DNA of 32,000 nucleotides from NCBI RefSeq assembly GCF_014396165.1, contig NZ_CP060715.1, positions 720,001 to 752,000 of the forward strand, written 5' to 3'. This stretch comes from Erysipelothrix inopinata. GTDB taxonomy: Bacteria > Bacillota_I > Bacilli_A > Erysipelotrichales > Erysipelotrichaceae. Position numbers and translations under genes: made by a program. Under the pieces are notes generated by a model. The model had not been told where the DNA came from, searched no databases, and saw nothing but the letters and a program-made list of their open reading frames with translations. Shown in pieces: positions 5,059 to 29,244 of the stretch; position 1 is the stretch's first letter, and every line of letters starts with the position of its first letter.

Positions 5059-5077
5059 GATCTTTGAAAACTGAATA
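5059..5077 (+). promoter_or_regulatory. boxA-like element in the 16S-23S spacer
   Basis: GATCTTTGAAAACTGAATA is a near repeat of the leader element at 3339-3357. Confidence 0.45.
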
Positions 5078-5262: not shown

Positions 5263-8169
<2,907 letters not shown>

Positions 8170-8246
8170 CACAAAGACAACATTCGAAAAGATATCGAAA
8201 TTTCTGTTATTCAGTTTTGAGAGATTATCTCTCAGCAATGCCAGGA

Positions 8247-8360
8247 TCTGGTGATTCTAGCGAAGTGGTCACACCTGTTCCCATCTCGAACACAGAAGTT
8301 AAGCACTTTAGCGGCGACAATATCTAGCCAAGCGCTAGTGAAGATAGCTCATTGCCAGGT
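8247..8360 (+). rRNA. rrf: 5S rRNA
   Basis: Identical to 264-377. Confidence 0.85.
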
Positions 8361-8859: not shown

Positions 8860-8965
8860 TATACGTAATAAGGTAATACTAAAAATAGAGTAGAATAGTA
8901 CAAAATCGTGTGGGGACGCGGTTTTTTAGACTTTGTATGAGACCATAGATGAGAGGAAAGTATGT

Positions 8966-9658: not shown

Positions 9659-9666
9659 GAGTCATA

Positions 9667-11192: not shown

Positions 11193-11196
11193 GCGA

Positions 11197-11838: not shown

Positions 11839-11917
11839 AAAAGCAATATACCCCCATGAGCATATTGTTAGCCGAAAATAATAGAAACAGTTAGAATATT
11901 CATGAGAGGTGACAATT

Positions 11918-12595: not shown

Positions 12596-12618
12596 GAATC
12601 ATGTTATGATTCCTTTTT
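12594..12618 (+). terminator. Rho-independent terminator
   Basis: Stem AGGAATCAT / ATGATTCCT with a GTT loop and a T run. Confidence 0.75.
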
Positions 12619-12656
12619 AATTGTAATGCTCAGGTGCTTATCGAGGAGGAATAATT

Positions 12657-14243: not shown

Positions 14244-14246
14244 GCT

Positions 14247-14270
14247 AAACCACTCAATAGAGTGGTTTTT
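14247..14270 (+). terminator. Rho-independent terminator
   Basis: Stem AAACCACTC / GAGTGGTTT with an AATA loop and a T run. Confidence 0.75.
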
Positions 14271-14332
14271 CTATAAAATACGGATAAAAATTGTGATGAT
14301 ACCGTAAAAAATAAGGAAGCACGCGTTACCCC

Positions 14333-14360
14333 TTGAAATTACATTCAAAAAGACTATGAT
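14333..14360 (+). promoter_or_regulatory. Predicted promoter
   Basis: TTGAAA (14333-14338), a 16-nt spacer, then TATGAT (14355-14360), upstream of SD AGGAGG. Confidence 0.4.
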
Positions 14361-14380
14361 AGGAATAGGAGGACTTTGAA

Positions 14381-15151
14381 ATGAGAATAAAGGTTGGTAC
14401 TTACAACATACGGTTCGAAAACGAAGAAGACGGACCTGACCAGTGGAAGTATCGGAAGAAGGAATTATTGAAGCAAATAGAGAGAAACGGTTTCGATGTG
14501 ATTGGATTACAAGAAGTTGTATCGAATCAATTTAAAGATTTAAAAAAGCTAAAGAAATATCAAGCAGTTGGAAAGAGTCGTGACGGAGAGGGTCATGAGG
14601 AATACAATCCAATTTTATATCGAAAAGATAAATTCAAATGTGTTCAGCAAGCAACACTGTGGTTATCTAAAACGCCATTTAAAGTTTCAAAAGACTGGAA
14701 CTCAGCTTGTTATCGTATCTGCACATGGGTACTTCTTGAATGTTTAGAGACTCAAGAACGTTTTGTATTCATGAATGCACATATCGACCATGAAAGTTTA
14801 GAAGCTCAAATTAACCAGGTGAAAATTCTTGAAGAAATTACAGATGTTGAATATCCAATTATCTTAGTGGGAGATTTCAATGTCGAAAAAGAGAATAAAA
14901 TCCTGCGACCATTACACAATCGATTTAATTATATAAAACCAATACAAAATCACGGAACATTCAATGATTTTAGATTGGATCCAGAAAATGATGAACTAGA
15001 GCATATTGATCATATCTTTGTATCAAAGGATATCGATTGTGACTCACTCACAATTTGTACTGAAAAAACAAGAAAAGGACGTTATCTATCAGACCATTTC
15101 TTGCTTACTACAGAAGCAAATATTCCCCACACAGTTTCAAAGATAGTATAA
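14381..15151 (+). CDS. Endonuclease/exonuclease/phosphatase (EEP) family protein
   Basis: The N-terminal VGTYNIRF...DVIGLQEV, a mid GDFN and the C-terminal SDH are EEP motifs. Confidence 0.8.
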   Translation: MRIKVGTYNIRFENEEDGPDQWKYRKKELLKQIERNGFDVIGLQEVVSNQFKDLKKLKKYQAVGKSRDGEGHEEYNPILYRKDKFKCVQQATLWLSKTPFKVSKDWNSACYRICTWVLLECLETQERFVFMNAHIDHESLEAQINQVKILEEITDVEYPIILVGDFNVEKENKILRPLHNRFNYIKPIQNHGTFNDFRLDPENDELEHIDHIFVSKDIDCDSLTICTEKTRKGRYLSDHFLLTTEANIPHTVSKIV

Positions 15152-15172
15152 TAAGACTGTTTGGAGGCTATT

Positions 15173-15850
15173 ATGAACTATACAACTGTACTATTAGATT
15201 TGGATAATACGATTTTAGATTTTAAAGCAGCAGAAAAAGTTGCTCTTAAAAATACTATAGAGCATTTAGGGATTCCCTATACACAAGAACTAGTAAACCA
15301 TTATGAGTCGGTTAACCATGACTTATGGAGCCAGTACGAACGTGGTGAAATACCTAAGGATCAAATATTAGAAACACGTTTTGCTGAAGCATTTAAATCA
15401 TTTAATCTTCCATACTCAGGAATTGAAATGGATCGTTATTTCCGAAATGAGATTGAGGAAAATAATGTATTCATGGAATATGCTGAACAGTTTATGGAAG
15501 AATTATCAAAGCAATCCAAAATTATATTTGTAACGAATGGTGTGACAGAAACACAGCATCGTCGTATCAAACTAGCTAATCTTATGTCATATGCTGATGG
15601 TGAGGTCGTTTCATCAGAAACAGGATATGCAAAACCTATGAAAGAAATGTTTGACTATGTATTCAAAAAGTTTGAAATTACGGACTTGGAGAATGTCATA
15701 ATGGTTGGAGACTCACTAAAAGCAGATATCCAAGGTGGTATCAATGCCGGTATTGCGACATGTTGGTACAATCCAAAACATGAAATCAATGATACTGGAA
15801 TCATTCCAACTCATGAAATTGCAGATTTAAGAGAATATTTTAAAAAGTAG
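15173..15850 (+). CDS. YjjG-like HAD hydrolase (noncanonical pyrimidine nucleotidase family)
   Basis: VLLDLDNTILDF is HAD motif I, followed by VTNG and GDSLKADIQGGINAG. I prefer the ATG at 15173, after SD GGAGG. Confidence 0.75.
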   Translation: MNYTTVLLDLDNTILDFKAAEKVALKNTIEHLGIPYTQELVNHYESVNHDLWSQYERGEIPKDQILETRFAEAFKSFNLPYSGIEMDRYFRNEIEENNVFMEYAEQFMEELSKQSKIIFVTNGVTETQHRRIKLANLMSYADGEVVSSETGYAKPMKEMFDYVFKKFEITDLENVIMVGDSLKADIQGGINAGIATCWYNPKHEINDTGIIPTHEIADLREYFKK

Positions 15851-15873
15851 AATGCGCTTGCATTCTACTTTTT
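15847..15873 (+). terminator. Rho-independent terminator
   Basis: Stem GTAGAATGC / GCATTCTAC with a GCTT loop and a T5 run. It overlaps the stop codon. Confidence 0.8.
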
Positions 15874-15909
15874 AAATTCGTATAGTTAAAGTAAGGAGAG
15901 GTGATAAGA

Positions 15910-16215
15910 ATGTTGAAGACAAAAGTATTTAGAGATTATATGCCAGCTACAGACTATAAATTGGTAACTGCCTTGAGTCAAATGGAGGAATTCATTAACC
16001 AACCTAATGTTGTATACAAAGGGCATGATTTTACTCCAGAGAAAGTTAGTGGCTTTAACTTTGGAATTTGGTTCTTTATTTTTATCGGCCGTGCAAATCT
16101 TAAAACAGACACGCGGGGAATGATCACCCTTGTATACGAAGAATTAGAAGGGGATCTAAGTGAAACAATTATTGATGTGGAAGAACCAACATCAGTAGAA
16201 GAACAAGTATTATAA
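15910..16215 (+). CDS. Small hypothetical protein (101 aa)
   Basis: ORF with SD AAGGAGAGG upstream. The ATG at 15910 and the GTG at 15901 are both possible starts. I recognise no motif. Confidence 0.5.
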   Translation: MLKTKVFRDYMPATDYKLVTALSQMEEFINQPNVVYKGHDFTPEKVSGFNFGIWFFIFIGRANLKTDTRGMITLVYEELEGDLSETIIDVEEPTSVEEQVL

Positions 16216-16226
16216 AGTATAATCAG

Positions 16227-16256
16227 AAAACAAGTCGATAAATTCGACTTGTTTTT
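16227..16256. terminator. Bidirectional terminator between convergent genes
   Basis: Perfect 12-bp stem AAAACAAGTCGA / TCGACTTGTTTT with a TAAAT loop. A/T runs on both sides. Confidence 0.8.
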
Positions 16257-16260
16257 ATTA

Positions 16261-16944
16261 CTAATTGAGAGATTTTTGATATTGAAGTCCCATTACAACT
16301 ACCCAGACATAGGCAAGAGTTTTAGGAATCATTAAGAGACCTATTGCCTGATTTACATCCGACCATAACACCACAGGGATATAGAAACCAAAAGATAGAG
16401 TAATCGCCAGCCACATCCATTTGAAAGGATCATTCGCTCTCTTTCGAGACTCGTTATAGAATAGATAAATCATAATTATACCCATTATAGCAAAGGGGAT
16501 ATTGCGATAAATAGCCCAGTCTAGTGGTTGATTGTGAACAAGCCACATGTTTTGTGGGAAAAGACCAACGATAATTCGAACTGCAGCTAACACTAACAGA
16601 ACGATTGATATAGTCTTAGTATTTTTGACTTGATAGTATTCTTTCCAAATAATATATAGGATGAGATAGAATACGGTCATTGTAATCGAAGTAACAGCCT
16701 TACCAAAGCCCATAGAAACTTCATACTGTATAAATGCACTTGTTAAATCACCGTTTGGACCTGCAGATAATAGTGCAATCACACGTGGAATTAAATGGAA
16801 TGCGTCACCCGCACCAAGGATGACTGCCATCCATCCGTAAAGTTTTGTAACTTTATTTTTTGAATTTTTTAACAAATAAATACCCATACCAACGACACCT
16901 AATAAATAGATGATATCAAAAATTGATTCCATAATAACTCTCAT
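16261..16944 (-). CDS. Polytopic membrane protein of unknown function
   Basis: 227-aa ORF with about 7 hydrophobic helices. SD GGAGGTGA lies 5 nt before the ATG. It is divergent from a TetR gene. Confidence 0.65.
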   Translation of the reverse strand: MRVIMESIFDIIYLLGVVGMGIYLLKNSKNKVTKLYGWMAVILGAGDAFHLIPRVIALLSAGPNGDLTSAFIQYEVSMGFGKAVTSITMTVFYLILYIIWKEYYQVKNTKTISIVLLVLAAVRIIVGLFPQNMWLVHNQPLDWAIYRNIPFAIMGIIMIYLFYNESRKRANDPFKWMWLAITLSFGFYIPVVLWSDVNQAIGLLMIPKTLAYVWVVVMGLQYQKSLN

Positions 16945-16955
16945 AATTCACCTCC

Positions 16956-17010
16956 ATGAACAGTGTTCATATTGTATTACTAATATAGTTCAACAAAAGA
17001 AGAATGTCAA
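16956..17010 (-). promoter_or_regulatory. Promoter plus candidate TetR operator for the membrane-protein gene
   Basis: On the minus strand: TTGACA (17005-17010), a 17-nt spacer, then TATATT (16982-16987). A perfect 15-bp palindrome, ATGAACAGTGTTCAT (16956-16970), lies between the -10 and the SD. Confidence 0.55.
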
Positions 17011-17066
17011 GAAGTTTAATGAAAATTCGTGTTTAGTGTATAATAGATACGAATAGAGGTGACGCT

Positions 17067-17624
17067 ATGAAAATAAAAAGTTCTGAAGTTAGAGATACAA
17101 TTCTTGAGAAATCAAAACAAATTTTAGAAACTGGAGAATTTAATTCTTTAACGATGCGATCTGTTGCCTCAGAGTGTGATATAGCGTTGGGTACAATCTA
17201 CCGCTATTTTAAAAATAAAGACGAAATCTTAGTTGAACTGAGTAAAGAGTACTGGCATGATGCTTTAGAATCTTTGAATGAGATTACTTATTCAGGAACA
17301 GATTTTGATACTAATCTGAAGATTTTTTATAGTCATCTCTTCCCATTATTTACTCGTTTTGAAAACGATTATATTTTGAGACTGCGTGATATGTCCGTTG
17401 AACTTAAAGATACAGGGAGATCCATGGAGAAAAGAATGTTTGATTTGTTTGTAGAAAGTATCTATGACATCTTAGTCAGAGATACGAGAATATCTTTACC
17501 TGATAATCTAGAGTTGCATGAACTTTCAAAACTGATCAGAAACTCTTTAATGTATTCGATACTACAAAAAAATGATAATATCGACCAAGACATTCATACT
17601 CTAAAGTCACTCATCATTCAATAG
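17067..17624 (+). CDS. TetR/AcrR family transcriptional regulator
   Basis: The N-terminal HTH is LTMRSVASECDIALGTIYRYFKNKDEIL. SD is AGAGGTGA. Confidence 0.85.
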   Translation: MKIKSSEVRDTILEKSKQILETGEFNSLTMRSVASECDIALGTIYRYFKNKDEILVELSKEYWHDALESLNEITYSGTDFDTNLKIFYSHLFPLFTRFENDYILRLRDMSVELKDTGRSMEKRMFDLFVESIYDILVRDTRISLPDNLELHELSKLIRNSLMYSILQKNDNIDQDIHTLKSLIIQ

Positions 17625-17640
17625 CACCCATATCTATAAA

Positions 17641-17672
17641 ATAAAGCCGAACTCCTTGGAATTCGGCTTTAT
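17641..17672. terminator. Bidirectional terminator between TetR and tpx
   Basis: 11-bp stem ATAAAGCCGAA / TTCGGCTTTAT, flanked by A/T runs. Confidence 0.7.
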
Positions 17673-17701
17673 TATTAAGGTAATAATAAAATATGTTTAA
17701 A

Positions 17702-18190
17702 TTAAGCGTTTTGCGCTGCTTCGAGAGCTGCTTCATAATTTGGCTCTTGGGCCATTTCAGGAACAATTTCTGAGTAGACAAGTTTTCCATCTTTATTGAT
17801 TACAAAGATAGAACGAGCGAGCAATTCAAACTCTGGAAGGTAGATGCCATAAGCGTGTGCAAATTCGAGTTCGACATCGCTTAGCATTTCTGCCTCAATT
17901 CCAGCTACTGCACACCAGTCTTTGAGTTGATCAATGGTATTATTAGATACGTTCACAATCTTTACACTTGGATAATCACTTGCTACCTTAAAAAAGTGAC
18001 GCGTTTGAAGATCACAAACACGAGTGTTGATATCAGGGAAAATACTGATAAGAACAGTCTGTCCTTTTAGGGAATCTAAAGAAACGGTTTCACCGTTGAT
18101 ATTAGGTAAATTAAATGATGGAGCCATTTCGTTTAAGGTTGGTTGAACACCTGCTACCTCAGTTGGAACTCCTTTTTTTGTTATTTGCAT
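17702..18190 (-). CDS. tpx: Thiol peroxidase (Tpx, atypical 2-Cys peroxiredoxin)
   Basis: MQITKKGVP...APSFNLPNINGETVSL...ISIFPDINTRVCDLQTRHF carries the peroxidatic Cys, and LKDWCAVAG the resolving Cys. The start at 18190 has SD AAGGAGGAT. The 42-aa upstream extension in the track has no SD and is rejected. Confidence 0.85.
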   Translation of the reverse strand: MQITKKGVPTEVAGVQPTLNEMAPSFNLPNINGETVSLDSLKGQTVLISIFPDINTRVCDLQTRHFFKVASDYPSVKIVNVSNNTIDQLKDWCAVAGIEAEMLSDVELEFAHAYGIYLPEFELLARSIFVINKDGKLVYSEIVPEMAQEPNYEAALEAAQNA

Positions 18191-18211
18191 TAAAATATCC
18201 TCCTTGGCCTC

Positions 18212-18270
18212 ATTATAAGTGATAAAGTAGTATATTCCAAAGGACATGCAACCTAATTTTTTGGTACAAT
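18212..18270. promoter_or_regulatory. Divergent promoter region (tpx leftward, HNH/methyltransferase rightward)
   Basis: On the minus strand: TTGGAA (18235-18240), 17 nt, then TATAAT (18212-18217). On the plus strand: an extended -10, TGgTACAAT (18262-18270). Confidence 0.45.
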
Positions 18271-18290
18271 AGAAATGAATTGAGGTAACT

Positions 18291-18824
18291 ATGACAAAGA
18301 GAATTCTAACAACCAAACAAGAAATTGCGGATTATTGGAAAGATGCGATTGATACCAATCAAACAAACGTTACCTACAAAAATGCTACTTCACATTGTTG
18401 GCGATGTGGTGTTAAAAAACGTTTGGATCGTTGTCATATTCGCGCTTTTTCTCTTGGAGGAAAAGACGAGCCAGGAAATTTTATTCTACTTTGCAAACAT
18501 TGTCATATTGATAATCCCAATGTTGAAGACATCAGTATTATCTGGGATTGGCTCCATGCTTATAAATTCGACGATGAGAAACCTTATTGGTATCATCAAG
18601 GTGTACGGGAATATGAATACATTTATAATGAGAGTATAGAGAGTCATTTATCTCGATATCATATTGAGATTAGAGAACAATTTGATAAACTTCTAGAAGA
18701 AACATTGAAAGATGTCGCGCACCACTTCGGACAACCAAGAAACAACCGAGCTACTGTTGCAGGAGCTATAAAAATAACATTAAATAAATTGGATGAAATT
18801 GAGGATAATTATGAACAAAAATGA
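18291..18824 (+). CDS. HNH endonuclease-domain protein with an unassigned ~100-aa C-terminal region
   Basis: CWRCG (C36, C39), DRCHI (H49), GNFILLC (N63) and CKHCH (C68-H72) form a zinc-finger HNH signature. SD is TGAGGTAA. Confidence 0.75.
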   Translation: MTKRILTTKQEIADYWKDAIDTNQTNVTYKNATSHCWRCGVKKRLDRCHIRAFSLGGKDEPGNFILLCKHCHIDNPNVEDISIIWDWLHAYKFDDEKPYWYHQGVREYEYIYNESIESHLSRYHIEIREQFDKLLEETLKDVAHHFGQPRNNRATVAGAIKITLNKLDEIEDNYEQK

Positions 18825-20187
18825 ACATTACCAAGTTGAGATAATCGACTTAACTTACGAAGGATTTGGAGTTGCGAAAGTGGACGGTTTTCCTGTTTTT
18901 ATTGAGAATACGATTCCAGGAGAAGTTGTGGATATCACTATTTTGAAAGTAACAAAGCGCTTTGCATTTGGTAAAGTACTTTCGTGGACTAAAGAATCAA
19001 AAGCACGTGTCGAAATCACAGATGCAGTGGGAACTCGAACAGGAACGATGCCACTTCAGCATCTATCCTATAGTGAACAACTTAAGTTCAAAAAAGATTT
19101 AGTCATTAAGACATTATCGAAGGAAGTAAGCTTAGAAAATGTGATCATCCATGATACGTTAGGAATGGAAAATCCATGGAACTATCGAAATAAAGCACAG
19201 ATTCCTGTTAGAGAAATTAATGGTCAATTGGAAACGGGGTTTTATAAAAAGGCCTCTCACGATCTAATTCCGATTGAAAACTATCACATTCAAGATTCTA
19301 AAATTGATGAAGCAATCATTATTGTTAGAGATATTCTTAGAAAACATAACATTAAGGCCTACGATGAAGAACATCACCGTGGTAACATTCGTCATATCAT
19401 AGTGAGACGTAGTGAAGCAACAAACGAAATAATGATTATCCTCGTTACAAAGGAGTCAAAAAAACTCTCAATAAATATTGTGGAAGAAATTACCAAGGAA
19501 ATACCCGAGTGCATAAGTATTGTCCAAAACATTAATGAGAAACGCACTAATGTCATTATGGGTCAACAACAAATTCTACTATACGGAGAAGATCGTTATC
19601 ATGATATTCTATTAGGAAAGACTTTCTCAATTTCTTCAAGATCCTTCTTCCAAGTAAATACGAAACAAACCGAGGTTTTATATAGTAAGGCCATAGAATT
19701 GGCAGATATCAAACCAAATGAAACAGTTGTAGATGCCTATTGTGGAATTGGTAGTATCTCACTCAACCTTGCGGACCATGCGAAACATGTATATGCAATG
19801 GAAATTGTAGAAGATGCAATTGTCATGGCTAAAGACAATGCCGAAACTAATAATATTACTAATGTAACATTTGAAGCAGGAAAGGCTGAAGAAATCATGC
19901 CAAGATGGGTCAAAGAAGGGTTAAGTATTGATACTCTAGTAGTAGATCCACCACGTAAAGGATTAGATATCAATTTTATCGATGCTTCCGTTAAATCGAA
20001 TCCAGAGCGAATTGTTTATGTTTCATGTAACCCGGCAACACTAGCCAGAGACTTGAAGTTATATCAAGAACGTGGATATGAACTTAAGGAAGTATGTCCT
20101 GTCGATATGTTTCCACAGACAGTACATGTTGAGTCGGTAGTCTTGTTGAGTAAAAATAATTTTAATGCTGTCAGTTTTAATTACTAA
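18811..20187 (+). CDS. TRAM-domain 23S rRNA (uracil-5-)-methyltransferase, RumA/RlmCD family (paralogue 1)
   Basis: An N-terminal TRAM domain (GFGVAKVDGFPVFIENTIPGEVV), then NYRNK, FFQVN, SAM motif I VDAYCGIGSISL, DPPRKG and the catalytic VSCNPATLARD. I prefer the ATG at 18811 (SD GAGG at 18801-18804); it overlaps the HNH ORF by 14 nt. Confidence 0.85.
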   Translation: MNKNEHYQVEIIDLTYEGFGVAKVDGFPVFIENTIPGEVVDITILKVTKRFAFGKVLSWTKESKARVEITDAVGTRTGTMPLQHLSYSEQLKFKKDLVIKTLSKEVSLENVIIHDTLGMENPWNYRNKAQIPVREINGQLETGFYKKASHDLIPIENYHIQDSKIDEAIIIVRDILRKHNIKAYDEEHHRGNIRHIIVRRSEATNEIMIILVTKESKKLSINIVEEITKEIPECISIVQNINEKRTNVIMGQQQILLYGEDRYHDILLGKTFSISSRSFFQVNTKQTEVLYSKAIELADIKPNETVVDAYCGIGSISLNLADHAKHVYAMEIVEDAIVMAKDNAETNNITNVTFEAGKAEEIMPRWVKEGLSIDTLVVDPPRKGLDINFIDASVKSNPERIVYVSCNPATLARDLKLYQERGYELKEVCPVDMFPQTVHVESVVLLSKNNFNAVSFNY

Positions 20188-20314
20188 ATCTAGTATGTAT
20201 ACTGAGGATATAAAAAGGTAATAATTGGGTATTCTAATAAAAAAACTAAAATTGTCTAATTAAATCAGTCAAAATGGTTGATTGAAAATATGGGAAAGGA
20301 AGTGATTTGTAAAA

Positions 20315-23300
20315 ATGTGTCCAATAATACCAGAATACAAAGAACTAAATTCTCAGCAAGAAAGTCAAATGTGGAATACAATTTCATCGGATAAATATGA
20401 TTGGGAGGATAATTACTTAGAAAAAAGATTGTTAGGTCTACTACCATCTGAGAGACATTTTTTTAATGACAGAAATCAACAACTATCAAAATCTCATCAA
20501 GAACAAAATCGTATTGTGGATGAGATAAATCAAAACATTGGAAGAATAAATCGAAATCTAAAGGAGAATTTCAATCAGTACGTTAGATCGGTAAGTAATC
20601 TATACTCAAAGTTGTATTCTTACAAAGACGTTAAAGAAGACTACTCAAACGAAGAAGTTATAAATGAAGCTTTAAAGTTTAATAAAGTATTTTTGATTAC
20701 AGGTGTAGGTGGAATTGGTAAAAGTGAGTATATGTTTGAACTATCCCAAAAAATAAACGAGTATGGATTTGAGGTATTAACGGTTTATGGAAAGTATATT
20801 GAGCAGATATCAAGTGCAGTATTTAACGAAATTATAAAAATTTCAGAAGAGAAGAGATTTTTTCTTTTAGTTGATGCAATTAATGAATTAAGTGATGAAA
20901 CAAGATTACAAGTTTTAGAGTTTATTGATAAAAACGAGGGAAATATGAATTTACGCATCATACTAACCTATAGAGATTATTCACTCCCTAAACACGAAAT
21001 TGATTCCATAAAGTCAAAGGTAACTGATTTAGAAATTTTTAGTGGTGTTTCGAGCGAAGATGCGATTGAAAAGATATCTGAAAAGTACAATCTTGATTTA
21101 ACTATGCACGAGCATTTTATTGTTAATAACAATCCATATCATTATTCACTAGCAATTAAAGTGCTGTCAAAAAATTTCTTAGTTAATCCAGACAGAAAAC
21201 CTCTCATTAAAGGTACTCATCTTTATGAGAAGATGATTCAAATATCTTTAGGTAAACCAAGGTGGTCTCAGACAAAAAAAGTAATTATGGAAATGATTTC
21301 AATAAACAGTAAAGTTCTAACATTCACTCAGCTAAAAGAGATTTTAGGTGGTGAATTTAGTAGATATATAATTGAGATGGGACAGAAAAATTTCATTGTG
21401 ACTTATAGTGATAAAGAAAATCAATACATTCTTTTTAAAAATGAATCTCTTTGCGACTATCTGATCGCAAGAAGTATTATGGGGAAAATTAAGGAACTCA
21501 CTTCAGATGAAAGCGTTAAACTACTCAAGCAGCTATTAATCAATTTCCACTCGGTAAGTAGAGCCTTGATAATTATGATATTTGAAAAATGTGAAAATGA
21601 AATTAATGATGCATTGTTCATTATTATGGAGACTGGTTTGATTGAATCGTTAACTTTAGACATGTTTAACGAATTAGAATTAAGCGCAGAAAACATGAGA
21701 ATAATTAAAGATAGGTTAACTCACAATATGACCGTGAAAGATTTAATCCGAGAAATTGGTGGATATCACTCAAATCCATTTAATTGTGTAAATCATATTA
21801 ATATGCAATTGTTTGAAGATGCAAATAGTGTATATAGTTTGGAATATCAAAGATATGAAGTTAGCTCGATTCGTTCGAGACTTAAAATATGGATTAGAAG
21901 CATTGTTAGGTATGAATATTCAAGTATATATATAGAAGAAAAGTTCTGGTTTGCATTTTGGATAAGCTCATTACCTAACGGAAATATTAGATACTTAGCA
22001 AGAAAATTAATATTTGAAGTGGCAAAATTAAACAGTGAATATTGCGATGTTCTAATTGATTCATATTTTAGAGTGGAAGATGATTATATTAAAGAAGGAA
22101 TAATTCATGTTCTCAGTTCTTTGGAAAAAGACAATAAAAAAATTGTTGAATTTTTTCAACAAATCAATAATGAAACCCTACTAAACATCAATTGCATTCA
22201 GTGGATTCAATTATATCTTTACGGATATAAGAGATTAACTAATGAAACTAAAATAGATATAAGTGAATTCAGAGATAAGCAAAATGATGATACAATATTC
22301 GATTTCCTATCAGTGGTTGGTTTTGATTTTAAGTACGATTACAGATTGCTAAATATGGACGTCTATAATATTGATAAATACAACATACATTTCAGAACAC
22401 AGTTCTTAAGTGAAGATAAAGTGAAGATTAATAAAATACACCAAGAAGTTCATAAAAAGATGAGATTGAATGATCTTGATTTTTTAAAAAGATATGTATC
22501 AAATAATAAAGTAAAGGAGTACTATTCAGAAAGTGGAATTACTGAACAATTGGTAGACTCTTACGATATATATTTGTCTTGGCAGTATTTGTTTAAGTAT
22601 TTTTTAAATAAATATCATATTGATCTACACGATATTGAGAAAAAAAGAGTTTTTGAGTCTGATATGAAAAATAATCTTTATAAAGCTTTAGATTTATCAA
22701 TTTCTAATTTAGAAGGTTCTTTGGCATGTAATTATTACTTAAATACGTTTGACAAATATAACGAAAGAGAATTGTGTTTTGATTCATATGAAAACGATGT
22801 ATATAATGAGTCAGTAGTTTTATACTATCCAATTAGTGTTTATAATGAAGAAATCGATAGTTTGGATAAAAAAATCATAAAAAAAATATATATACCTAAG
22901 ATAAAAACAGATGAGTGGGCAGAAGATTTCAAATTATCTATCGCTAACTTCAGAGAATTAATAGCTCCCGTTAAGTTTAAAGGTGAAGAATGGAGGCTGA
23001 TATATGGAAGTATTAAAAGAAGAGAAAAAGATAAAAAAAGCGGCAAATTAGTATGGAGTGATGAATATATACTAAACTTGGCGGTCGATGAAAAATATAC
23101 ACTTTCAAATAATCCTTCAAATGATAGAATGTATACCATAGAAACTCCGACGATTAATGATGATGTTATTAATATAAGTATATACGACACTTCAAGGACA
23201 TGTAGTCTCAGAAGTACCAATGAGTTTAGAAATGAGTTTGTCGAAACAAATTTCAATGTTCCTTCGACTAGATTAGTAAAAATATTTGATCTTAAGTACA

Positions 23301-23686
23301 GCTTACATAATAACTCGTGGAAGAATAATAGTGGTGAGGATGTGATTCTTGTTAATAATAATAAAAGTTATTGGTATAATGATGGAATAACTGGGTCTTT
23401 GTTTATGAAAGATAAATATTTTAAGGTTCTTGAAAAAAAATGCAAATTGAAATATTTTGGTTTCTGTGAGCGTTTTTATGGCGATAAAGGATATAATAAT
23501 GAATCAGCACTTCAAATTGAGTTATACTTGGATGGAACTGAAAATTACTATAAACATTATGAAAGGCCGAATAGAGATAAACCAAATCTTCCAAATAGTA
23601 AACAAAATAGACAGGAAGGCATCGATGATAACCAAATGGAAGAATATTATAAAAAATTAAATGATTTGGAGTATACAAATGAATAA
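20315..23686 (+). CDS. Large NACHT/STAND-like P-loop NTPase (1123 aa) with no recognisable effector domain
   Basis: Walker A is GVGGIGKS (aa 130-137, nt 20702-20725). Walker B is FFLLVDAINE (D187), followed by RIILTYRD (aa 214-221). YILFKNESLCDYLIARSI (aa 371-388) is a winged-helix-like patch. SD is GGAAAGGAAGTGA. Confidence 0.7.
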   Translation: MCPIIPEYKELNSQQESQMWNTISSDKYDWEDNYLEKRLLGLLPSERHFFNDRNQQLSKSHQEQNRIVDEINQNIGRINRNLKENFNQYVRSVSNLYSKLYSYKDVKEDYSNEEVINEALKFNKVFLITGVGGIGKSEYMFELSQKINEYGFEVLTVYGKYIEQISSAVFNEIIKISEEKRFFLLVDAINELSDETRLQVLEFIDKNEGNMNLRIILTYRDYSLPKHEIDSIKSKVTDLEIFSGVSSEDAIEKISEKYNLDLTMHEHFIVNNNPYHYSLAIKVLSKNFLVNPDRKPLIKGTHLYEKMIQISLGKPRWSQTKKVIMEMISINSKVLTFTQLKEILGGEFSRYIIEMGQKNFIVTYSDKENQYILFKNESLCDYLIARSIMGKIKELTSDESVKLLKQLLINFHSVSRALIIMIFEKCENEINDALFIIMETGLIESLTLDMFNELELSAENMRIIKDRLTHNMTVKDLIREIGGYHSNPFNCVNHINMQLFEDANSVYSLEYQRYEVSSIRSRLKIWIRSIVRYEYSSIYIEEKFWFAFWISSLPNGNIRYLARKLIFEVAKLNSEYCDVLIDSYFRVEDDYIKEGIIHVLSSLEKDNKKIVEFFQQINNETLLNINCIQWIQLYLYGYKRLTNETKIDISEFRDKQNDDTIFDFLSVVGFDFKYDYRLLNMDVYNIDKYNIHFRTQFLSEDKVKINKIHQEVHKKMRLNDLDFLKRYVSNNKVKEYYSESGITEQLVDSYDIYLSWQYLFKYFLNKYHIDLHDIEKKRVFESDMKNNLYKALDLSISNLEGSLACNYYLNTFDKYNERELCFDSYENDVYNESVVLYYPISVYNEEIDSLDKKIIKKIYIPKIKTDEWAEDFKLSIANFRELIAPVKFKGEEWRLIYGSIKRREKDKKSGKLVWSDEYILNLAVDEKYTLSNNPSNDRMYTIETPTINDDVINISIYDTSRTCSLRSTNEFRNEFVETNFNVPSTRLVKIFDLKYSLHNNSWKNNSGEDVILVNNNKSYWYNDGITGSLFMKDKYFKVLEKKCKLKYFGFCERFYGDKGYNNESALQIELYLDGTENYYKHYERPNRDKPNLPNSKQNRQEGIDDNQMEEYYKKLNDLEYTNE

Positions 23687-23861
23687 GCTAAATGATCGAA
23701 TTTAACTTGAATAATAAATTGAAAGCAAACAAAAAAGAAATTGCAGAGAAACGCCCTTATCTTTTTTGTGCATTCAATTCATGTGGAGACACTCGCATTA
23801 CTTGCATCTATATTTTTATAGAAATAAACCAAAGTAGTAAATCTCAAGAGAGGTTATTATA

Positions 23862-24437
23862 ATGATCATATACGTGACTAAAAAAACAGTTGATAGATTT
23901 AACATGGAAATAATGGAAACCTTAAGTGATAATTCAAAAGATGAAGCACAAAGAATAGTAAGTGCGGAAAGTTGCAATAAAATGCACGAATGGGGCACAA
24001 AGATATTCTATTTTGAAAAACGAAAGTGTATTCAACTCGTACATTTTGCAACGAAATTCACTCTTATATTAGTAGATATAAAGGTCTCCGATTTGGAACA
24101 CTTGAGAGAGCTAATTCTTCATTATTTACTAACTTTATATACAAATGATGAGAAAATGCAGCTATGTATTTATCGAATGCTTTCTGAATGTCCTGAATTA
24201 GTCTATGCAAAGTTAACAGACAAACGAATCATTTCAACACTAAACCGGACACAACTCGATTTCTTATTGGATGGTTATAGATTGTATGACTACATTGAAA
24301 ATGGTATTCTCGTAACTATGAAACTAAATGAAGATATGAATTTTAAGTGGTTGGTGACAGAAACTATTGAAAAGAAAACAGACTACTTTTTTGCAGGAGA
24401 AAAGTTCAAGGGGGTAATGATGGCTAATTATGGATGA
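23862..24437 (+). CDS. Hypothetical protein (191 aa), possibly the DUF6933-like family
   Basis: ORF with SD AGAGAGG. The pattern MIIYVTKK...W..K.FYF.KRKC.QLVH..T.F..IL....SDL..L.ELI resembles a conserved Firmicute family as I recall it. This is unverified. Confidence 0.5.
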   Translation: MIIYVTKKTVDRFNMEIMETLSDNSKDEAQRIVSAESCNKMHEWGTKIFYFEKRKCIQLVHFATKFTLILVDIKVSDLEHLRELILHYLLTLYTNDEKMQLCIYRMLSECPELVYAKLTDKRIISTLNRTQLDFLLDGYRLYDYIENGILVTMKLNEDMNFKWLVTETIEKKTDYFFAGEKFKGVMMANYG

Positions 24438-25074
24438 GTACACTGATTTAAACATTGATAAAAAACCAAAAGAGACCTTGTTGAGTGAAATAAACAGTTA
24501 TAAAAAAGAAATAGAAAATAATAAAATTTTATTAGAGAAACCAAATAAATATAGTGAAGATGAGTTCTGAAAAAGAATTATTGAGATAGAAATGTTAGCT
24601 GAGAAAATGCAAGATGCAATCGTTTCGTTTAAAAAAGCAGGCGGAATCTATGAACAATCAAAACTAGAACGAAAATCCTCAGAATTTGACAGAAATCTAA
24701 AGTATATTTATAAATTGATATTTTCAATCGGTGGATTCTTATCAGGATATAAAAATTATATAATTATAGTAGGCAAAGAAGAAGATTCGGATATTGAAGA
24801 AGGTGACTCTGAGAATAGAATACCTTTTGAAAACTCAATAGAAATAAAATCTTACAGAGACAAAGCATTTCTTGATGAATTAAAAGAAATAAAAATTGGT
24901 GAGTGGAGAAACAGTTACACTACCGAAAGATTTGGTTATACGATATACGATGGAACACAGTGGGAACTTGAAATATATTATTGCAATGCAAAGGGCCCAA
25001 TTAGATTTTCAGGGAGTAACTCCTATCCCTATAATTTTAATAAATTTTTAGAATTGTTAAAAGAAGTAGAATAG
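24430..25074 (+). pseudogene. Unknown-function gene interrupted by a single in-frame TGA (46-aa N-terminal piece plus the 160-aa track ORF)
   Basis: The ATG at 24430 overlaps the upstream stop (ATGGATGA) and reads 46 codons to the TGA at 24568-24570. The track ORF 24592-25074 is in the same frame. Only 7 sense codons separate the stop from the next ATG. Confidence 0.5.
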
Positions 25075-25135
25075 TATAAATATCGGAAGAAATTAAAGTA
25101 TAATTAAAAACGATTAAACAATTTGAGGTGATGTT

Positions 25136-26539
25136 ATGAATAGAAACACATGCCCAACAGAAGTGTTGGAAGTCACAATCGATACGATTGAAGAAAATGG
25201 TTATGGGTATGCAAAATATACTCATGCACCTACAACAGGTTCACAAGGAAAAAGATTGAACCTCTTTATAAAAAATGTTGTACCTGGAGATGTCGTAAAA
25301 GTGACAGTTCCCAATGCACAAGGACGAAGAAAAGCTACTTTATCCTACGACGAACTTTTAAAACCAGGGCCAACTCGTAATCTGGATATTTCCACAGATG
25401 AATCTGTATCCGGTGGTGCACCTTTGCAGTATATGAAATATGAGAATCAACTTGAATTTAAAGAAAACATGGTTAAACATCATCTTGAAAATAATGGATT
25501 TGATACAAGTGTGGTTAAACCAATCATCGGCATGGAAAATCCATATCGTTATCGAAATAAGATGGAGCTAACATTTGGACCCAATGGTGAATTAGGAATG
25601 ACACAACAAGGGAATTTCCGTAAGGTTATTGATTTGCAGGATTCATTACTGATGCCAGAAATTATGGTTGATGTGAAAAATGTTGTCAGTGAATGGCAGG
25701 AAAAGTACAAACTTTCGGGATATAATAAAGAAACAGAAGAAGGATTATTAAGAAATCTTATGATGCGTATGTCCTTTACAACGGATGAATTGATGTTGGT
25801 GTTTTATGCTACACAGTCTCCCGCAGCATACGAAGAAGAAGTAAGAGATCTTGTTGATTTACTGACAACGAAATTTGATAACCTCGTTAGTTTACAATGG
25901 ATTGAACATGCTGAAGCTGTAGAACGTATTCAAGCTGACGCAATTCACATCCTCCATGGAAGAGATTATCTCGTTGATGTTCTTAATGGCTTTAAGTACC
26001 GCATTTGGCCCGATACGTTTTTTCAAGCTAATCCAGTTCAAGCTGAGAAGTTGGTTGAATTAGCATTGGAAATGGCAGAAGTTAATGATCAAATGAAAAT
26101 GTTAGACCTCTTCTGTGGGGTTGGGACATTTAGTTTGCCTTTTGCTAAGAACAGTAAAGCTCTAGCAGGGATTGAAATTGTGGATAAATCAATTGAATCT
26201 GCAAGACGAAATGCTAAGGACAATGGACTGGAAAATACCTATTTTATGACAAGTGATGCGAGAAGTGGCCTTCCTAAATTGAAAGAAGAGTGGGGTCATC
26301 CTGATATACTATTACTCGATCCACCTCGTAGTGGTGCAGGGGGAAAAGTAATGAGAAGCATTGGACGTTTCGCAACTGACAAGATTATTTATGTTTCCTG
26401 TGCACCAAGAAGTTTAGCTGAAGATCTTGTATGGCTAAAGGAGTTTGGGTATAACATTGTGACTGTTCAACCAGTGGATCAGTTTCCACATACTGCACAT
26501 GTAGAAACTGTAGTTCTGTTATCAAAGAATAATATGTAA
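25136..26539 (+). CDS. TRAM-domain RNA (uracil-5-)-methyltransferase, RumA/RlmCD family (paralogue 2)
   Basis: A TRAM-like N-terminus, then RYRNK, FFQAN, motif I LDLFCGVGTFSL, DPPRSG and the catalytic VSCAPRSLAED. SD is GAGGTGA. Confidence 0.85.
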   Translation: MNRNTCPTEVLEVTIDTIEENGYGYAKYTHAPTTGSQGKRLNLFIKNVVPGDVVKVTVPNAQGRRKATLSYDELLKPGPTRNLDISTDESVSGGAPLQYMKYENQLEFKENMVKHHLENNGFDTSVVKPIIGMENPYRYRNKMELTFGPNGELGMTQQGNFRKVIDLQDSLLMPEIMVDVKNVVSEWQEKYKLSGYNKETEEGLLRNLMMRMSFTTDELMLVFYATQSPAAYEEEVRDLVDLLTTKFDNLVSLQWIEHAEAVERIQADAIHILHGRDYLVDVLNGFKYRIWPDTFFQANPVQAEKLVELALEMAEVNDQMKMLDLFCGVGTFSLPFAKNSKALAGIEIVDKSIESARRNAKDNGLENTYFMTSDARSGLPKLKEEWGHPDILLLDPPRSGAGGKVMRSIGRFATDKIIYVSCAPRSLAEDLVWLKEFGYNIVTVQPVDQFPHTAHVETVVLLSKNNM

Positions 26540-26561
26540 ACATAAATTTAAGGATAAGTTT

Positions 26562-26711
26562 ATGAGCGTCCTAACAATAGCGAGTCAAAATTCTAAAGAA
26601 AGAGGTTACGATTACTATGTACGTGACCAAGTCCGCGAAGTTTTAAAATCAAATGAAACTGAAGCATATGCAGTTGTAAATGGTAGCGGCATGAATCTTT
26701 TTGACTTGTGA
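26562..26711 (+). pseudogene. Truncated N-terminal fragment (49 codons) of a SWIM-zinc-finger/SNF2-associated type protein
   Basis: MSVLTIASQNSKERGYDYYVRDQVREVLKSNETEAYAVVNGSG matches the N-terminal (E/Q)RGYDYY..G.V......Y.A.V.GS pattern that I recall from SWIM-domain proteins. It stops after 49 codons and no SWIM CxC...CxH follows. Confidence 0.4.
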
Positions 26712-26815
26712 ATATATATGAATGTGAATGAGTATTTTTAGATACGAAAGTTGTAATAATTATGAATCTTGTATCGACATCAATATAATAATATAAATGA
26801 TATGGGAGAGTAGAA

Positions 26816-27325
26816 ATGATCACATTGAAGAGTGTTAATGCAAATAATATTAATGACATAATTGAACTTGAAGTTAATGAAAATCAAGAGAAATTTCTTG
26901 AAACATCTGTTTTAAAAAGTATCGGAGATGCACTGGAGATGAATATGGATGGAACTCCAGCAGTCCCACTTGCAATATATAAAGATACAAAAATAATAGG
27001 GTTTATAATGTATATTTATGATGTTTTAGATCACGAAGATTTTCAAGGAAAAGAGTTCTACAACCAAAACACATATTTTATCTGGCATTTCGTAATTGAT
27101 AAAAGATTCCAAGGATTAGGTTATGGTAGGGATACTCTAGTCGAGTTTGATAAACTAATTAAAACCTATCCTAACGGTCCGTCTGATAATATAGTTCTTT
27201 TCTTCCATTCTGATAACGAGATAGCAAGAAATCTTTACAGATTACTGGGGTATAAAGAAACATCAATTACAATGGACAATTCAACGATGTTAATAAAAAA
27301 ATTGAATGAAACATTCACAGAGTGA
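26816..27325 (+). CDS. GNAT family N-acetyltransferase (diamine/spermidine acetyltransferase-like)
   Basis: RFQGLGYGR is the acetyl-CoA motif and NEIARNLYRLLGY is also present. SD is GGGAGAG. Confidence 0.75.
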   Translation: MITLKSVNANNINDIIELEVNENQEKFLETSVLKSIGDALEMNMDGTPAVPLAIYKDTKIIGFIMYIYDVLDHEDFQGKEFYNQNTYFIWHFVIDKRFQGLGYGRDTLVEFDKLIKTYPNGPSDNIVLFFHSDNEIARNLYRLLGYKETSITMDNSTMLIKKLNETFTE

Positions 27326-27610
27326 TTTATATATTGTGTATTGTGCGGTTTATGGAGATTGTTTTTATTCCAATCGATAATTCGGTAATAACGTACTGAT
27401 TTTTTAAAATAGTGAAGTTGCTGAAAATATGATTGATTAATAATTTTAGTCAATTATACAAGTCCCAATCCGATTTAGTTTAATTAGCATCTAACAATCC
27501 AGGTTAATTAGTAATAGGTCGTCTAAATAATTTATTGATACTGCTCATGTTGAAACAGTGGTATTACTCGAAAAGCAGTAACGGGTTTCTGATTTAAGTG
27601 CAAATGTATT

Positions 27611-29132
27611 GTTAGTGTCAAATAAGTGGGGGAAAATAATGGTTTCTTTAATTTCTGCTGATATGTGCCTTAAGCCATCTTGAACTCGAGGATTTATCGT
27701 AAGCATTTCGTTGTTCGAACATCGAGAAGTCATATTTGGCTTCTTTTTGTTTTATACTTTTAGGATCTATTGAATCTAAATATAAGTTTCTAATATCGAT
27801 ATGGTTAAGGAATAAGTTTCTTAGATTAAGATAAGCATTTAAATTTTCTTTGCAGTATCCCTTAGGTCTATTTGAGTATATAGAAGCGAGATTATGACTG
27901 ATAGCTGACTCCATACTACAACCTATTTTCAAGCCGTTGTAGCTGTACTGTATCGCAAGAGTATTGCGTAGTATATAATTACATTTTTCTTCTATTGTTT
28001 TTTGACGATTTGATTGTTCTGTACCATCTATCAAGGTTTGAATGATTTGATTAAAGGTTTCAGTATTTCCGTTAATTATATTGGAGGCGAGGATTTCTTT
28101 TGTAGGTTTATCTGTGGTGATATGATTAAGTGCTTGTTTAAAGTGAAACTTATCAAGGGCAAAGCTACTATGAGAAAATTCACGAGTTCCTGACTTAATC
28201 CATAAAGCACCATCTCCGAGTATGGTAATATTCTTGATTTTATCCATATCATACGTGATTGATAAGAGGTCATATACACTATTCCAGAAATTACTTTCAG
28301 TTCCTGAATAAACCATTTTATTAATCAATTGACGGCGCTTCTGAGGTCCTTTTATACCTTCAAAAATTACAGCTGACTTGACCATGACAGACTGAGATTC
28401 ATTACGTTGCATATGAACATACTTTTCATCGGCCATGATGTATAAGTGACTTGGTGTAGGCTTAGGCTCACAAAGTTCAGACAGTGACGGCAAGGGACGT
28501 TTAACGGTATTATAAACTGTTTGTCTTGATATACGATAATGTTCACGATGCTGAGACGTTGAGAAAGAAGAAAAGATTCTGTCACCAATCTGCTCTCCGA
28601 CTTTAATCATTGAATTTTGATTCGCAAAAGTCTCCACAATCATGCACTTTACGCATGGGTCATAGCGATCATATTTAGGTAAACCTAGTTTGCGATCGAC
28701 ATAGATAAAGGTTTTTCCTGTAGTCTTATCTTTGTAGATAGTTCGTTTAAACTTCACGACTCCAAATACAGTAATAAGGGTGCGTTCACGTGTTTGGTGA
28801 ACATAGTAATCTCTTTTACGAAGTGCGGAATTCTTAAATTTTAAATCAAGAAGTTCAAAGTTTTGAACAAGATAGTCACAAGCAGCAATGCGAAGCCATT
28901 CTGAAGTATGTTCAATAAACTGAGAGTAATTACGGATCGTAAATTCTTGATTGGTAGGTTCTAAAAGGTAATTCGTTGATTCCTGGATAGACACAAATAA
29001 ATTTTTTAAGGTGTTGGATAATTCAAATTGTGGTAAAATAGTCATGGCGATAGCTCACTTTCTAATAGTTTGTAGTAAAACCATTATAAGCGAGTTATCG
29101 CTTTTTGTATTCCCCCACCTATTTTACACAAT
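27611..29132 (-). mobile_element. ISLre2-family (UPF0236) insertion sequence, apparently intact
   Basis: A single 465-aa transposase ORF. The imperfect terminal inverted repeats are GTGTCAAATAAGTGGGGGAA (27615-27634) and TTCCCCCACCTATTTTACAC (29110-29129), matching 18/20. The flanking direct repeat CAAATGTATT sits at 27601-27610 and 29133-29142. Confidence 0.75.
27648..29045 (-). CDS. ISLre2/UPF0236 family transposase
   Basis: ERTLITVFGVVKFKRTIYKD...YVDRKLGL, LYIMADEKYV, ILGDGALWIK and LDKFHFKQAL match my recollection of ISLre2-type transposases. Confidence 0.75.
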   Translation of the reverse strand: MTILPQFELSNTLKNLFVSIQESTNYLLEPTNQEFTIRNYSQFIEHTSEWLRIAACDYLVQNFELLDLKFKNSALRKRDYYVHQTRERTLITVFGVVKFKRTIYKDKTTGKTFIYVDRKLGLPKYDRYDPCVKCMIVETFANQNSMIKVGEQIGDRIFSSFSTSQHREHYRISRQTVYNTVKRPLPSLSELCEPKPTPSHLYIMADEKYVHMQRNESQSVMVKSAVIFEGIKGPQKRRQLINKMVYSGTESNFWNSVYDLLSITYDMDKIKNITILGDGALWIKSGTREFSHSSFALDKFHFKQALNHITTDKPTKEILASNIINGNTETFNQIIQTLIDGTEQSNRQKTIEEKCNYILRNTLAIQYSYNGLKIGCSMESAISHNLASIYSNRPKGYCKENLNAYLNLRNLFLNHIDIRNLYLDSIDPKSIKQKEAKYDFSMFEQRNAYDKSSSSRWLKAHISRN

Positions 29133-29244
29133 CAAATGTATTATGTTAGTTTACTTATTAGGTGAAAACCGATAAAATAGTACTATCAATACATTCATTT
29201 ACATATTTAGTTATATAAAAGAAGAGTGGAGACACTCTTTTATT

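Follow-up and report, generated by a model that had tools for sequence, protein, structure and literature searches.

The window analysed here, a stretch of 32,000 nucleotides (nt) of Erysipelothrix inopinata DNA (contig NZ_CP060715.1, positions 720,001 to 752,000), carries at 20315..23686 a gene for a protein of 1123 amino acids (aa) that is probably a nucleoside triphosphatase of the STAND class (signal-transducing ATPases that have numerous domains) and a candidate anti-phage sensor. The product of this open reading frame (ORF) is identical to WP_187534659.1 / QNN61458.1, the E. inopinata 'hypothetical protein H9L01_03595'. A GGAAG-type ribosome-binding site precedes the ATG by approximately 12 nt, and a scan of the sequence for promoters and terminators returned no more sites than shuffled sequence. 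The original prediction for this gene, made from the letters of the DNA, had described an orphan NACHT/STAND-like NTPase with no recognisable effector and proposed it as a novel anti-phage sensor. The ORF list and a motif search returned the ORF and the motifs exactly where that prediction had placed them, and with an AlphaFold 2 (AF2) model the gene can be divided as follows (pLDDT, predicted local distance difference test).

20315..23686, plus strand: STAND NTPase gene, ATG start, 1123 aa (ORF list, exact database match, AF2 model)
20315..20680, plus strand: N-terminal helical domain, aa 1-122, candidate output or latch module (secondary structure of the model)
20681..21049, plus strand: nucleotide-binding domain (NBD), aa 123-245 (motif positions, invariance, nSTAND3 match)
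21050..21499, plus strand: helical domain 1 and winged-helix domain, aa 246-395, with NNP(Y/L)H and NESLCDYLIAR (secondary structure, conservation, fold matches)
21500..22831, plus strand: alpha-helical repeat arm, aa 396-839, approximately 440 aa (all-helical in the model)
22832..23569, plus strand: beta-rich C-terminal domain, aa 840-1085, approximately 250 aa, putative sensor of the Avs2/Avs3 type (separate AF2 model)
23570..23686, plus strand: low-confidence C-terminal tail, aa 1086-1123, and stop codon (pLDDT below 50)

The NTPase core contains the Walker A motif GVGGIGKS at aa 130-137 (nt 20702-20725), the Walker B motif FFLLVDAINE at aa 182-191 (nt 20858-20887), the sensor-I strand RIILTYRD at aa 214-221 (nt 20954-20977) and the winged-helix patch YILFKNESLCDYLIARSI at aa 371-388 (nt 21425-21478). 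In an alignment of 27 homologues with 23-49% identity, G130, G132, G133, G135 and K136 of Walker A, D187, A188, N190 and E191 of Walker B and R220 in the sensor-I position were invariant, as were N273 in the helical/winged-helix region and L379 and R386 of the winged-helix patch, in which D381, Y382, L383 and I384 were kept in at least 90% of the sequences. The invariance of these residues indicates that the motifs are selected features and did not arise by chance. By analogy with NB-ARC proteins, we take RIILTYRD to be the counterpart of the RNBS-B 'TTR' sensor-I strand, NNP(Y/L)H at approximately 272-276 to be that of the GxP (GLPL) motif and NESLCDYLIAR at 376-386 to be an MHD-type winged-helix patch. 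Conservation was roughly even throughout the protein, with a mean column identity of 0.53 at the N-terminus and 0.59-0.64 in the other domains.

Among the Pfam models, nSTAND3 (PF20720) gave the best match (aa 116-230, E 1e-5, 25.7 bits vs a cut-off of 27.2), and PF20720 is also listed in the precomputed database annotation of WP_187534659.1. The NTPase of Avs5 is of the same nSTAND3 type (10.1101/2025.07.08.663546). Weaker matches of the E. inopinata protein were to nSTAND5, NTPase_1 and NPHP3_N, and its relatives matched NPHP3_N, AAA_14, nSTAND5, nSTAND3, AAA_16, NACHT and KAP; at E ≤ 0.01, nSTAND5 was matched by 13 and nSTAND3 by 4 of the 27 relatives. For NACHT (PF05729), the Pfam scan gave no match of the E. 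inopinata protein at E ≤ 1, and three of the 27 relatives matched weakly (best E 0.0019).

The full-length AF2 model, computed on the family alignment, reached a pLDDT of 82.8 and a predicted template modelling score of 0.82. In a Foldseek search of the PDB with this model, Avs4 in complex with the phage portal (8dgf) ranked first (E 3e-6, 945 aligned columns), the match spanning the ATPase and the helical arm with an identity of 11-12% and a global TM-score of 0.19-0.20. Further matches, all with E ≤ 6e-4, were Cdc6/ORC, RFC, RuvB, MalT, SAMD9, Apaf-1, NLRP7, NLRC4 and the STAND-TPR protein 6mfv; Cdc6/ORC, RFC and RuvB score as well because the AAA+ core is common to them and to STAND proteins. 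The matches to Avs4, Apaf-1 and the NLR proteins (nucleotide-binding, leucine-rich-repeat receptors) also cover the helical/winged-helix region aa 246-395. Searches of PDB sequences with profiles of the full-length protein and of the C-terminal domain returned coiled-coil noise and nothing significant. Together, the fold search, the invariant motifs and the near-threshold nSTAND3 match support the proposed assignment to the STAND class, while the narrower 'NACHT' label is not established.

The part of the protein that had been described as HEAT/ARM-like, with RYLARKLIFEVAKL at aa 559-572 and GIIHVLSSLEKD at aa 595-606, lies in the region aa 396-839, which is indeed all-helical in the model. 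This arm contains a strongly conserved loop, GG..xNPFNC, at 482-491, and K524, E542 and K564 are invariant. The C-terminal domain was modelled on its own from a sub-alignment of 16 sequences with a pLDDT of 87.4. Its only PDB matches at E ≤ 0.001 were chains A and B of the structure of Avs3 with terminase (8dgc; E 1.5e-6 and 2.1e-6, probability 1.0, 257 columns, 15% identity), and the next match had an E value of 0.35. The match list contained neither Cap4 crystal structures, Cap4 being the closest relative of the N-terminal nuclease of Avs3, nor other PD-(D/E)xK proteins, nor ATPase or TPR structures, and the matched part should therefore be a domain that only Avs3 has in the copy of the PDB searched. 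EcAvs2 and SeAvs3 have in common a 'C-terminal sensor' rich in beta-strands, with which both bind the terminase ATPase and touch the same surface of it (PMC13601566). Avs2-trypsin is composed of an effector (1-203), STAND (204-700), TPR (701-1170, approximately 470 aa) and a C-terminal domain (1171-1461, approximately 290 aa; 10.64898/2026.08.25.746987), and the E. inopinata protein has its parts in the same order, with an arm and a C-terminal domain of similar size, but lacks the enzyme. An exhaustive search with a hidden Markov model of the C-terminal domain against 1.84 billion representative sequences retrieved 112 proteins, all with the same architecture of approximately 1100 aa or fragments of it, indicating that the domain is not shuffled between architectures at detectable sequence similarity. 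On the basis of the models and the comparison with Avs2 and Avs3, the most likely role of the C-terminus is that of a sensor rather than of the missing effector.

The opposite assignment, in line with one of two options in the original prediction, would make the last approximately 350 aa a novel effector; this could be an enzyme or a toxin freed by oligomerisation of the STAND protein, with sensing left to the helical arm alone. This domain contains the highest density of invariant polar residues outside the NBD (R938, T941 and E1052, with D916, K1046 and N1014-1016 nearly invariant), and no other effector is visible in the protein. However, its one significant structural match is to terminase-bound Avs3, in which the beta-rich C-terminal domain is the sensor, and its structural neighbours include no nuclease, protease, NADase or pore-former, pore-forming toxins appearing only at E > 0.3 with a probability of at most 0.02. 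Neither a PD-(D/E)xK nor any other known catalytic spacing was recognised among the conserved residues; specifically, a PD-(D/E)xK nuclease was rejected by the unfitting spacing of D916, K1046 and E1052 and by the lack of nuclease structural neighbours. In addition, characterised Avs proteins carry their effector at the N-terminus, where oligomerisation gathers the copies (PMC13601566). An effector function of the C-terminal domain thus appears improbable.

A different question is what such a sensor would recognise. An Avs-type sensor with another trigger, either some other conserved protein of the phage or a cue that is not a protein, with the C-terminal fold serving as a scaffold and not as the determinant of specificity, is an alternative that we consider somewhat unlikely. 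It would fit with the helical arm, which has no detectable likeness to the arms of Avs2 and Avs3, with the portal sensor Avs4 as the best full-length match and with the low TM-score of the Avs3 match. Moreover, the phage proteins sensed by the different Avs families represent at least 13 folds, and sensors need not be structurally related to have a common target (PMC12803255). Against it stands the C-terminal domain, for which terminase-bound Avs3 is the only significant PDB match, and the fact that in both Avs2 and Avs3 the C-terminal sensor contacts the same terminase ATPase surface.

At the other end of the protein, the N-terminal domain consists of a motif of approximately 45 aa around W30 and P44, followed by a helical hairpin at 59-101. 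The motif is kept across both clades of the family, but only W30 is invariant and P44 nearly so (alignment A3). No catalytic residues were recognised in these 122 aa. Scans with Pfam, PADLOC and NCBIfam detected no family match in them and no nuclease, TIR, SIR2 or protease family anywhere in the protein, which agrees with the earlier statement that there is no recognisable enzymatic effector. The designation 'orphan', however, does not describe an unusual status, as the N-terminal effector of EcAvs2 likewise has 'no clear enzymatic function' (PMC13601566).

A peculiarity of the E. inopinata copy concerns four cysteines that are present in 24-25 of the 27 relatives, a C-x4-C pair near residue 720 and a CxxC pair just past the C-terminal domain. 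Their pattern suggests a structural zinc site of the Cys4 type, by which tail and helical arm would be joined. L718, F723, K1096 and R1099 (nt ~22466-22483 and ~23600-23611) take their place in the E. inopinata protein, so that its tail lacks the CxxC found in 25 of the 27 relatives, and one distant relative (P0050) likewise lacks all four. The model of the E. inopinata protein is least confident around 671-740 and in the tail. Judged by its sequence, the gene does not look like a pseudogene, because all invariant residues of the NTPase are intact.

Database searches retrieved 50 further proteins matching the STAND protein at E ≤ 1e-43; the complete ones have approximately 1100 aa, and any that are shorter come from short contigs. 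The family comprises approximately 110 sequence clusters of uniform architecture and occurs sporadically in Lachnospiraceae, other Clostridia, Bacilli, Erysipelotrichaceae, Granulicatella and Oribacterium, and beyond Bacillota in Fusobacterium necrophorum, Treponema/Spirochaetaceae, Muribaculaceae and one metagenome-assembled genome (MAG) of Anaerolineaceae. In IMG/VR, one contig contained a family member. The homologues lie among defence genes such as MmeI, Fic, DpnII restriction-modification (R-M), Hachiman (HamA and helicase), HicAB, an OLD-family nuclease, a KAP NTPase, type I restriction enzymes, GajB, JetC/JetD, a DRT reverse transcriptase, AbiLi and many type II/III methyltransferases, with Gabija and Wadjet named among the neighbouring systems, and among mobile-element genes (tyrosine and serine recombinases, Rep, MobC, relaxases). 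When the two upstream and two downstream ORFs of 52 non-redundant loci were counted, no neighbour family occurred in more than approximately 12% of them. This mixture of defence and mobile-element genes without a conserved core neighbourhood, to which the recurrent position at rumA described below adds, is in line with the defence-island context that had been proposed for the gene.

Two observations from this survey concern individual loci. A second, larger nSTAND3 protein of 1234-1249 aa is encoded one or two genes downstream of the family member at loci L004/L006 (15287-18991) and L054 (12611-16357), and its occurrence in two unrelated contexts suggests that STAND sensors cluster together. 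In Extibacter muris (L073/L074, 6001-9265), a frameshift splits the family member into ORFs of 143 aa and approximately 930-950 aa; the split gene lies just after a gene for a RumA of 547 aa and before a RhuM gene, and the exact 143-aa product was present in 79 blocks of the sequence collection.

In E. inopinata itself, comparison with a sister genome showed that the STAND gene lies in an acquired block between two rumA paralogues. The features of this region outside the STAND gene are the following.

18793..20187, plus strand: rumA1, 23S rRNA m5U methyltransferase RlmD (homologues named RlmD; break at codon E447)
20134..25134, no strand: acquired 5.0-kb block between the two rumA paralogues (blastn vs sister-genome locus L070, junctions, GC dip)
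23862..24437, plus strand: DUF6933 gene, 191 aa (Pfam PF22016, E 3.6e-17; PADLOC PDC-S63, E 1e-11)
24592..25074, plus strand: 160-aa ORF inside the acquired block (no family match; dissimilar to the 153-aa ORF of the sister)
27648..29045, minus strand: UPF0236-type transposase (in a second block missing from the sister)

The sister, Erysipelothrix sp. MAG GCA_036641495.1 (locus L070), is collinear with the window at 87% identity over 8779-20133 and again from 25135, and in place of 20134-25134 it holds 567 bp with an unrelated ORF of 153 aa. The GC content is 0.26-0.30 over 20-25 kb vs approximately 0.35 in the flanks. The GC dip, the absence of the block from the sister and the transposase gene at 27648..29045 bear out the earlier description of an AT-rich variable block near an insertion sequence. 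The transposase gene belongs to a second block missing from the sister (26515-29139), together with a GNAT acetyltransferase gene at 26816-27325, and an Rfam match to the Streptococcus pyogenes antisense RNA Spy392987 (29044-29106) abuts its end. Positions 1-8360 of the window contain the end of one rRNA operon (23S end and 5S) and a complete 16S-23S-5S operon (3430-8360); the acquired blocks thus lie approximately 12 kb downstream of an rRNA operon.

The acquired block contains the STAND gene, the DUF6933 gene and the 160-aa ORF, all in the same orientation, and this arrangement raises the question whether the STAND protein is a sensor only, which signals to an effector encoded elsewhere, for example by the DUF6933 gene (PDC-S63) or the 160-aa ORF. 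The original prediction had named the small downstream genes as a possible source of the effector, and DUF6933 matches a PADLOC defence candidate. However, in tblastn searches neither the DUF6933 gene nor the 160-aa ORF nor a 56-aa ORF had a homologue in any of the 68 homologous loci, no neighbour family accompanies the STAND gene with any regularity (see the count above), and the unit that Granulicatella and a Clostridiales isolate have in common consists of the STAND gene alone. Among the explanations considered, an effector in trans is therefore the least probable. The downstream genes were rejected as partners by this lack of co-occurrence, and the DUF6933 gene is better regarded as an independent candidate defence gene, corresponding to the PADLOC single-gene candidate PDC-S63. 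The lack of a conserved partner and the transfer of the STAND gene as a lone gene together argue that the system consists of a single gene.

The left junction of the block lies inside rumA1. The window is collinear with the sister up to the H-V-E codons, 54 nt short of the stop codon of rumA1; beyond them the C-termini differ, so that the last 18 codons of rumA1 fall within the acquired block. A RumA/RlmD gene is also found directly upstream of the family member in at least 10 other genomes of different families and phyla (loci L028, L044, L053, L054, L049, L061, L059, L060, L068 and L073/L074), including Granulicatella, Fusobacterium necrophorum, Diplocloster agilis, Extibacter muris, several Lachnospiraceae and a Clostridiales isolate, and the genes upstream of rumA differ among the loci inspected. 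Granulicatella (L028) and the Clostridiales isolate (L044) have in common a 4.17-kb unit with 98.6% identity, which has its start within the conserved 3' motif of rumA and in which the STAND gene is the only gene, with no integrase. Copies of a 'RumA C-terminal extension' of approximately 95 aa (..YEQIQNYVLEKYDFKVSTLYIAQVKRKYGLEV..KVPQCP.EKE.AI..ALKHFKMI), which matches no Pfam family, flank the STAND cassette or successive tandem cassettes in three loci; copies were located at 7422-7751 and 11577-11878 in L053, at 7617-7956, 12456-12578 and 16557-16787 in L054 and at 7519-7856 and 12547-12891 in L061, and one at 7655-7957 in L029. In Diplocloster, the next cassette after the STAND cassette encodes another nSTAND3 protein. 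The rumA gene is a target of integrative and conjugative elements (ICEs) with a single large serine integrase, which exchange the 3' parts of rumA and of the integrase gene, and CTn5 of Clostridioides difficile likewise integrates in rumA (PMC4701971). Successive integrations at rumA may have left the extension behind as such an exchanged 3' part of a serine integrase gene. In the block 20134-25134, the ORF list and Pfam revealed no integrase/recombinase, relaxase or conjugation genes, and a repeat search of the window found no att-like or flanking direct repeats beyond the similarity of the rumA paralogues. Our reading is that the block was brought as cargo to rumA, a known hotspot, by an element that has decayed or is mobilised in trans.

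RumA was also considered as a functional partner and rejected: it is adjacent in only approximately 10 of approximately 60 loci, most loci being without rumA, which argues against a functional pairing, and the junction inside rumA points to an integration site rather than an operon. Several further features of the rumA region were seen. The paralogues at 18793-20187 and 25136-26539 are in tandem and 30% identical, and in the sister they are adjacent, approximately 0.5 kb apart. The sister also has a third gene for a TRAM-methyltransferase after a DEAD helicase gene. A free-standing HNH endonuclease gene (18291-18824), kept in the sister (L070, 9481-10014), overlaps the start of rumA1, and the 153-aa ORF of the sister (L070, 11362-11823), in which a GIY-YIG-like motif (FYIGKTT..) was recognised by eye, overlaps the rumA1 stop. 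If this reading by eye is right, two homing-endonuclease-like genes would bracket rumA1 in the sister.

The position at rumA is also a reason to consider that the protein is not directed against phages at all, and that it serves the maintenance or competition of mobile elements, for example by excluding rival integrative elements at rumA, or is a STAND-type regulator. The rumA-proximal position at the ends of integrated elements recurs in at least 11 genomes, Rep, Mob and integrase genes adjoin in other loci, and the family is absent from the sequenced phages and plasmids searched. Defence genes, however, are typical cargo at the ends of such elements. Many loci lie amid R-M and other defence genes and have neither rumA nor an element backbone, no DNA-binding or recombinase domain was found by Pfam, PADLOC or NCBIfam, and the closest structural relatives are antiviral sensors. 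We therefore regard a function other than defence against phages as very improbable.

From this combination of sequence, model and analogy, we favour, with a confidence slightly above even, the interpretation of the E. inopinata protein as a stand-alone, Avs-type (bacterial NLR-like) antiviral pattern-recognition ATPase that is carried as cargo of mobile elements and works by the mechanism outlined here. Its most likely target would be a phage protein that is conserved, with the DNA-packaging terminase as a possibility. While the protein is at rest, the ATPase would be kept closed by the helical arm together with the C-terminal domain. During infection, both would envelop the conserved phage protein. 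The foremost candidate for this protein is the large terminase, specifically its ATPase domain, since it is the terminase that Avs2 and Avs3 bind with their C-terminal sensor, which is probably homologous. The ATP-bound protomers would then oligomerise via their NBDs and thereby gather their N-termini. The output is the weakest part of this scheme. In order of preference, the clustered N-terminal helical modules (aa 1-122, with W30 and P44) might act as a non-enzymatic toxic or signalling unit, as proposed for EcAvs2; the oligomers might trap their target stoichiometrically; or an effector might act in trans, which is disfavoured by the synteny data. The broad reading as a candidate anti-phage STAND sensor is thereby retained from the original prediction, whereas its specific proposals for the effector are not.

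Several observations count against the favoured interpretation. The nSTAND3 score of the E. inopinata protein lies below the gathering cut-off, and no PADLOC v2 or NCBIfam model matched it at E ≤ 1, spurious matches aside. Avs3 was not among the top 50 Foldseek matches of the full-length model. The 8dgc match of the C-terminal domain has a TM-score of only 0.39 to the query and a root-mean-square deviation of 12 Å; the likeness may cover sub-domains with a different hinge, and the match was placed on the C-terminal sensor of Avs3 by elimination. A tblastn search found no homologue on 72,556 plasmids or in 50,697 phage genomes. A profile search with the N-terminal domain retrieved only truncated or frameshifted members of the same family and no new architecture, and an effector role of this module is unsupported. 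Finally, the loss of the four cysteines could mean that the E. inopinata copy has altered or reduced function.

A more far-reaching proposal, which we regard as rather unlikely, is that the protein is an effector-less Avs that traps the phage terminase in ATP-driven oligomers and thereby stops the packaging of DNA without killing the cell, or that the segment of approximately 45 residues around W30 and P44 is a new, minimal and non-enzymatic death module. In either case it would be a single-gene cassette that rides on the rumA 3' recombination site without an integrase of its own. The characterised Avs proteins come almost all from Enterobacteriaceae and Pseudomonas, and in them sensing is coupled to an obvious enzyme. 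A compact Firmicute family would allow testing whether a bacterial NLR can defend without a catalytic effector, and its Avs3-like C-terminal domain would allow testing whether the sensor fold is a portable predictor of terminase recognition. With 1123 aa, the protein is small enough for structural work. In addition, with the recurrent placement just after rumA, the search for further defence cargo in Gram-positive genomes gains a defined hotspot.

Among the known systems, Avs2 and Avs3 (EcAvs2, 9O4E; SeAvs3, 8DGC) are the natural references. Like them, the E. inopinata protein has an N-terminal module, a STAND ATPase, a long helical arm and a beta-rich C-terminal domain, and like theirs, its system is encoded by a single gene, spread horizontally and located in defence islands. 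Of the tripartite Avs layout with effector, STAND NTPase and sensor, the NTPase and sensor parts appear to be present, whereas the N-terminal 122 aa have no recognisable effector fold. The present protein differs from Avs2 and Avs3 in its lack of likeness at the sequence level (PADLOC, NCBIfam and PDB sequence searches were negative), in its size of 1123 aa vs about 1460-2000 aa, and in having neither a Cap4 nuclease nor a trypsin, MBL or other effector domain. It also has a helical arm unrelated to theirs and an NTPase nearest to the nSTAND3 type, and its family occurs mainly in Bacillota, whereas the characterised Avs proteins are from Enterobacteriaceae. With Avs5 (SIR2-STAND), it has in common the nSTAND3 model as best Pfam match and a single-gene organisation with a helical-repeat sensor, but it lacks the SIR2 domain, has an additional beta-rich C-terminal domain and scores below the nSTAND3 gathering cut-off. 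The portal sensor Avs4 (8DGF) is its best full-length structural match; in contrast to Avs4, it has no Mrr-type nuclease, and its C-terminal domain does not match Avs4. The integration site resembles that of rumA-targeting ICEs and integrative and mobilisable elements, as the block starts inside the rumA 3' end and gives rumA a new C-terminus, as in streptococcal ICEs (PMC4701971), whereas the 5-kb block has no integrase, relaxase or conjugation genes and no flanking direct repeat. A census from 2026 distinguished 589 prokaryotic STAND clades (PMC13581612) and 684 sensor clusters (PMC12803255, PMC13581612), which tempers the claim that the sensor is novel, and the present family may already be among the 589 clades. 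Its value would then be more modest, that of an annotated example with an unusual output module. As far as sequence and models allow the comparison, the protein would follow the same logic and fold as the known Avs systems, and what appears to be new is that it matches no Avs family model, seems to manage without an enzymatic effector and has its setting at a rumA hotspot in a Firmicute.

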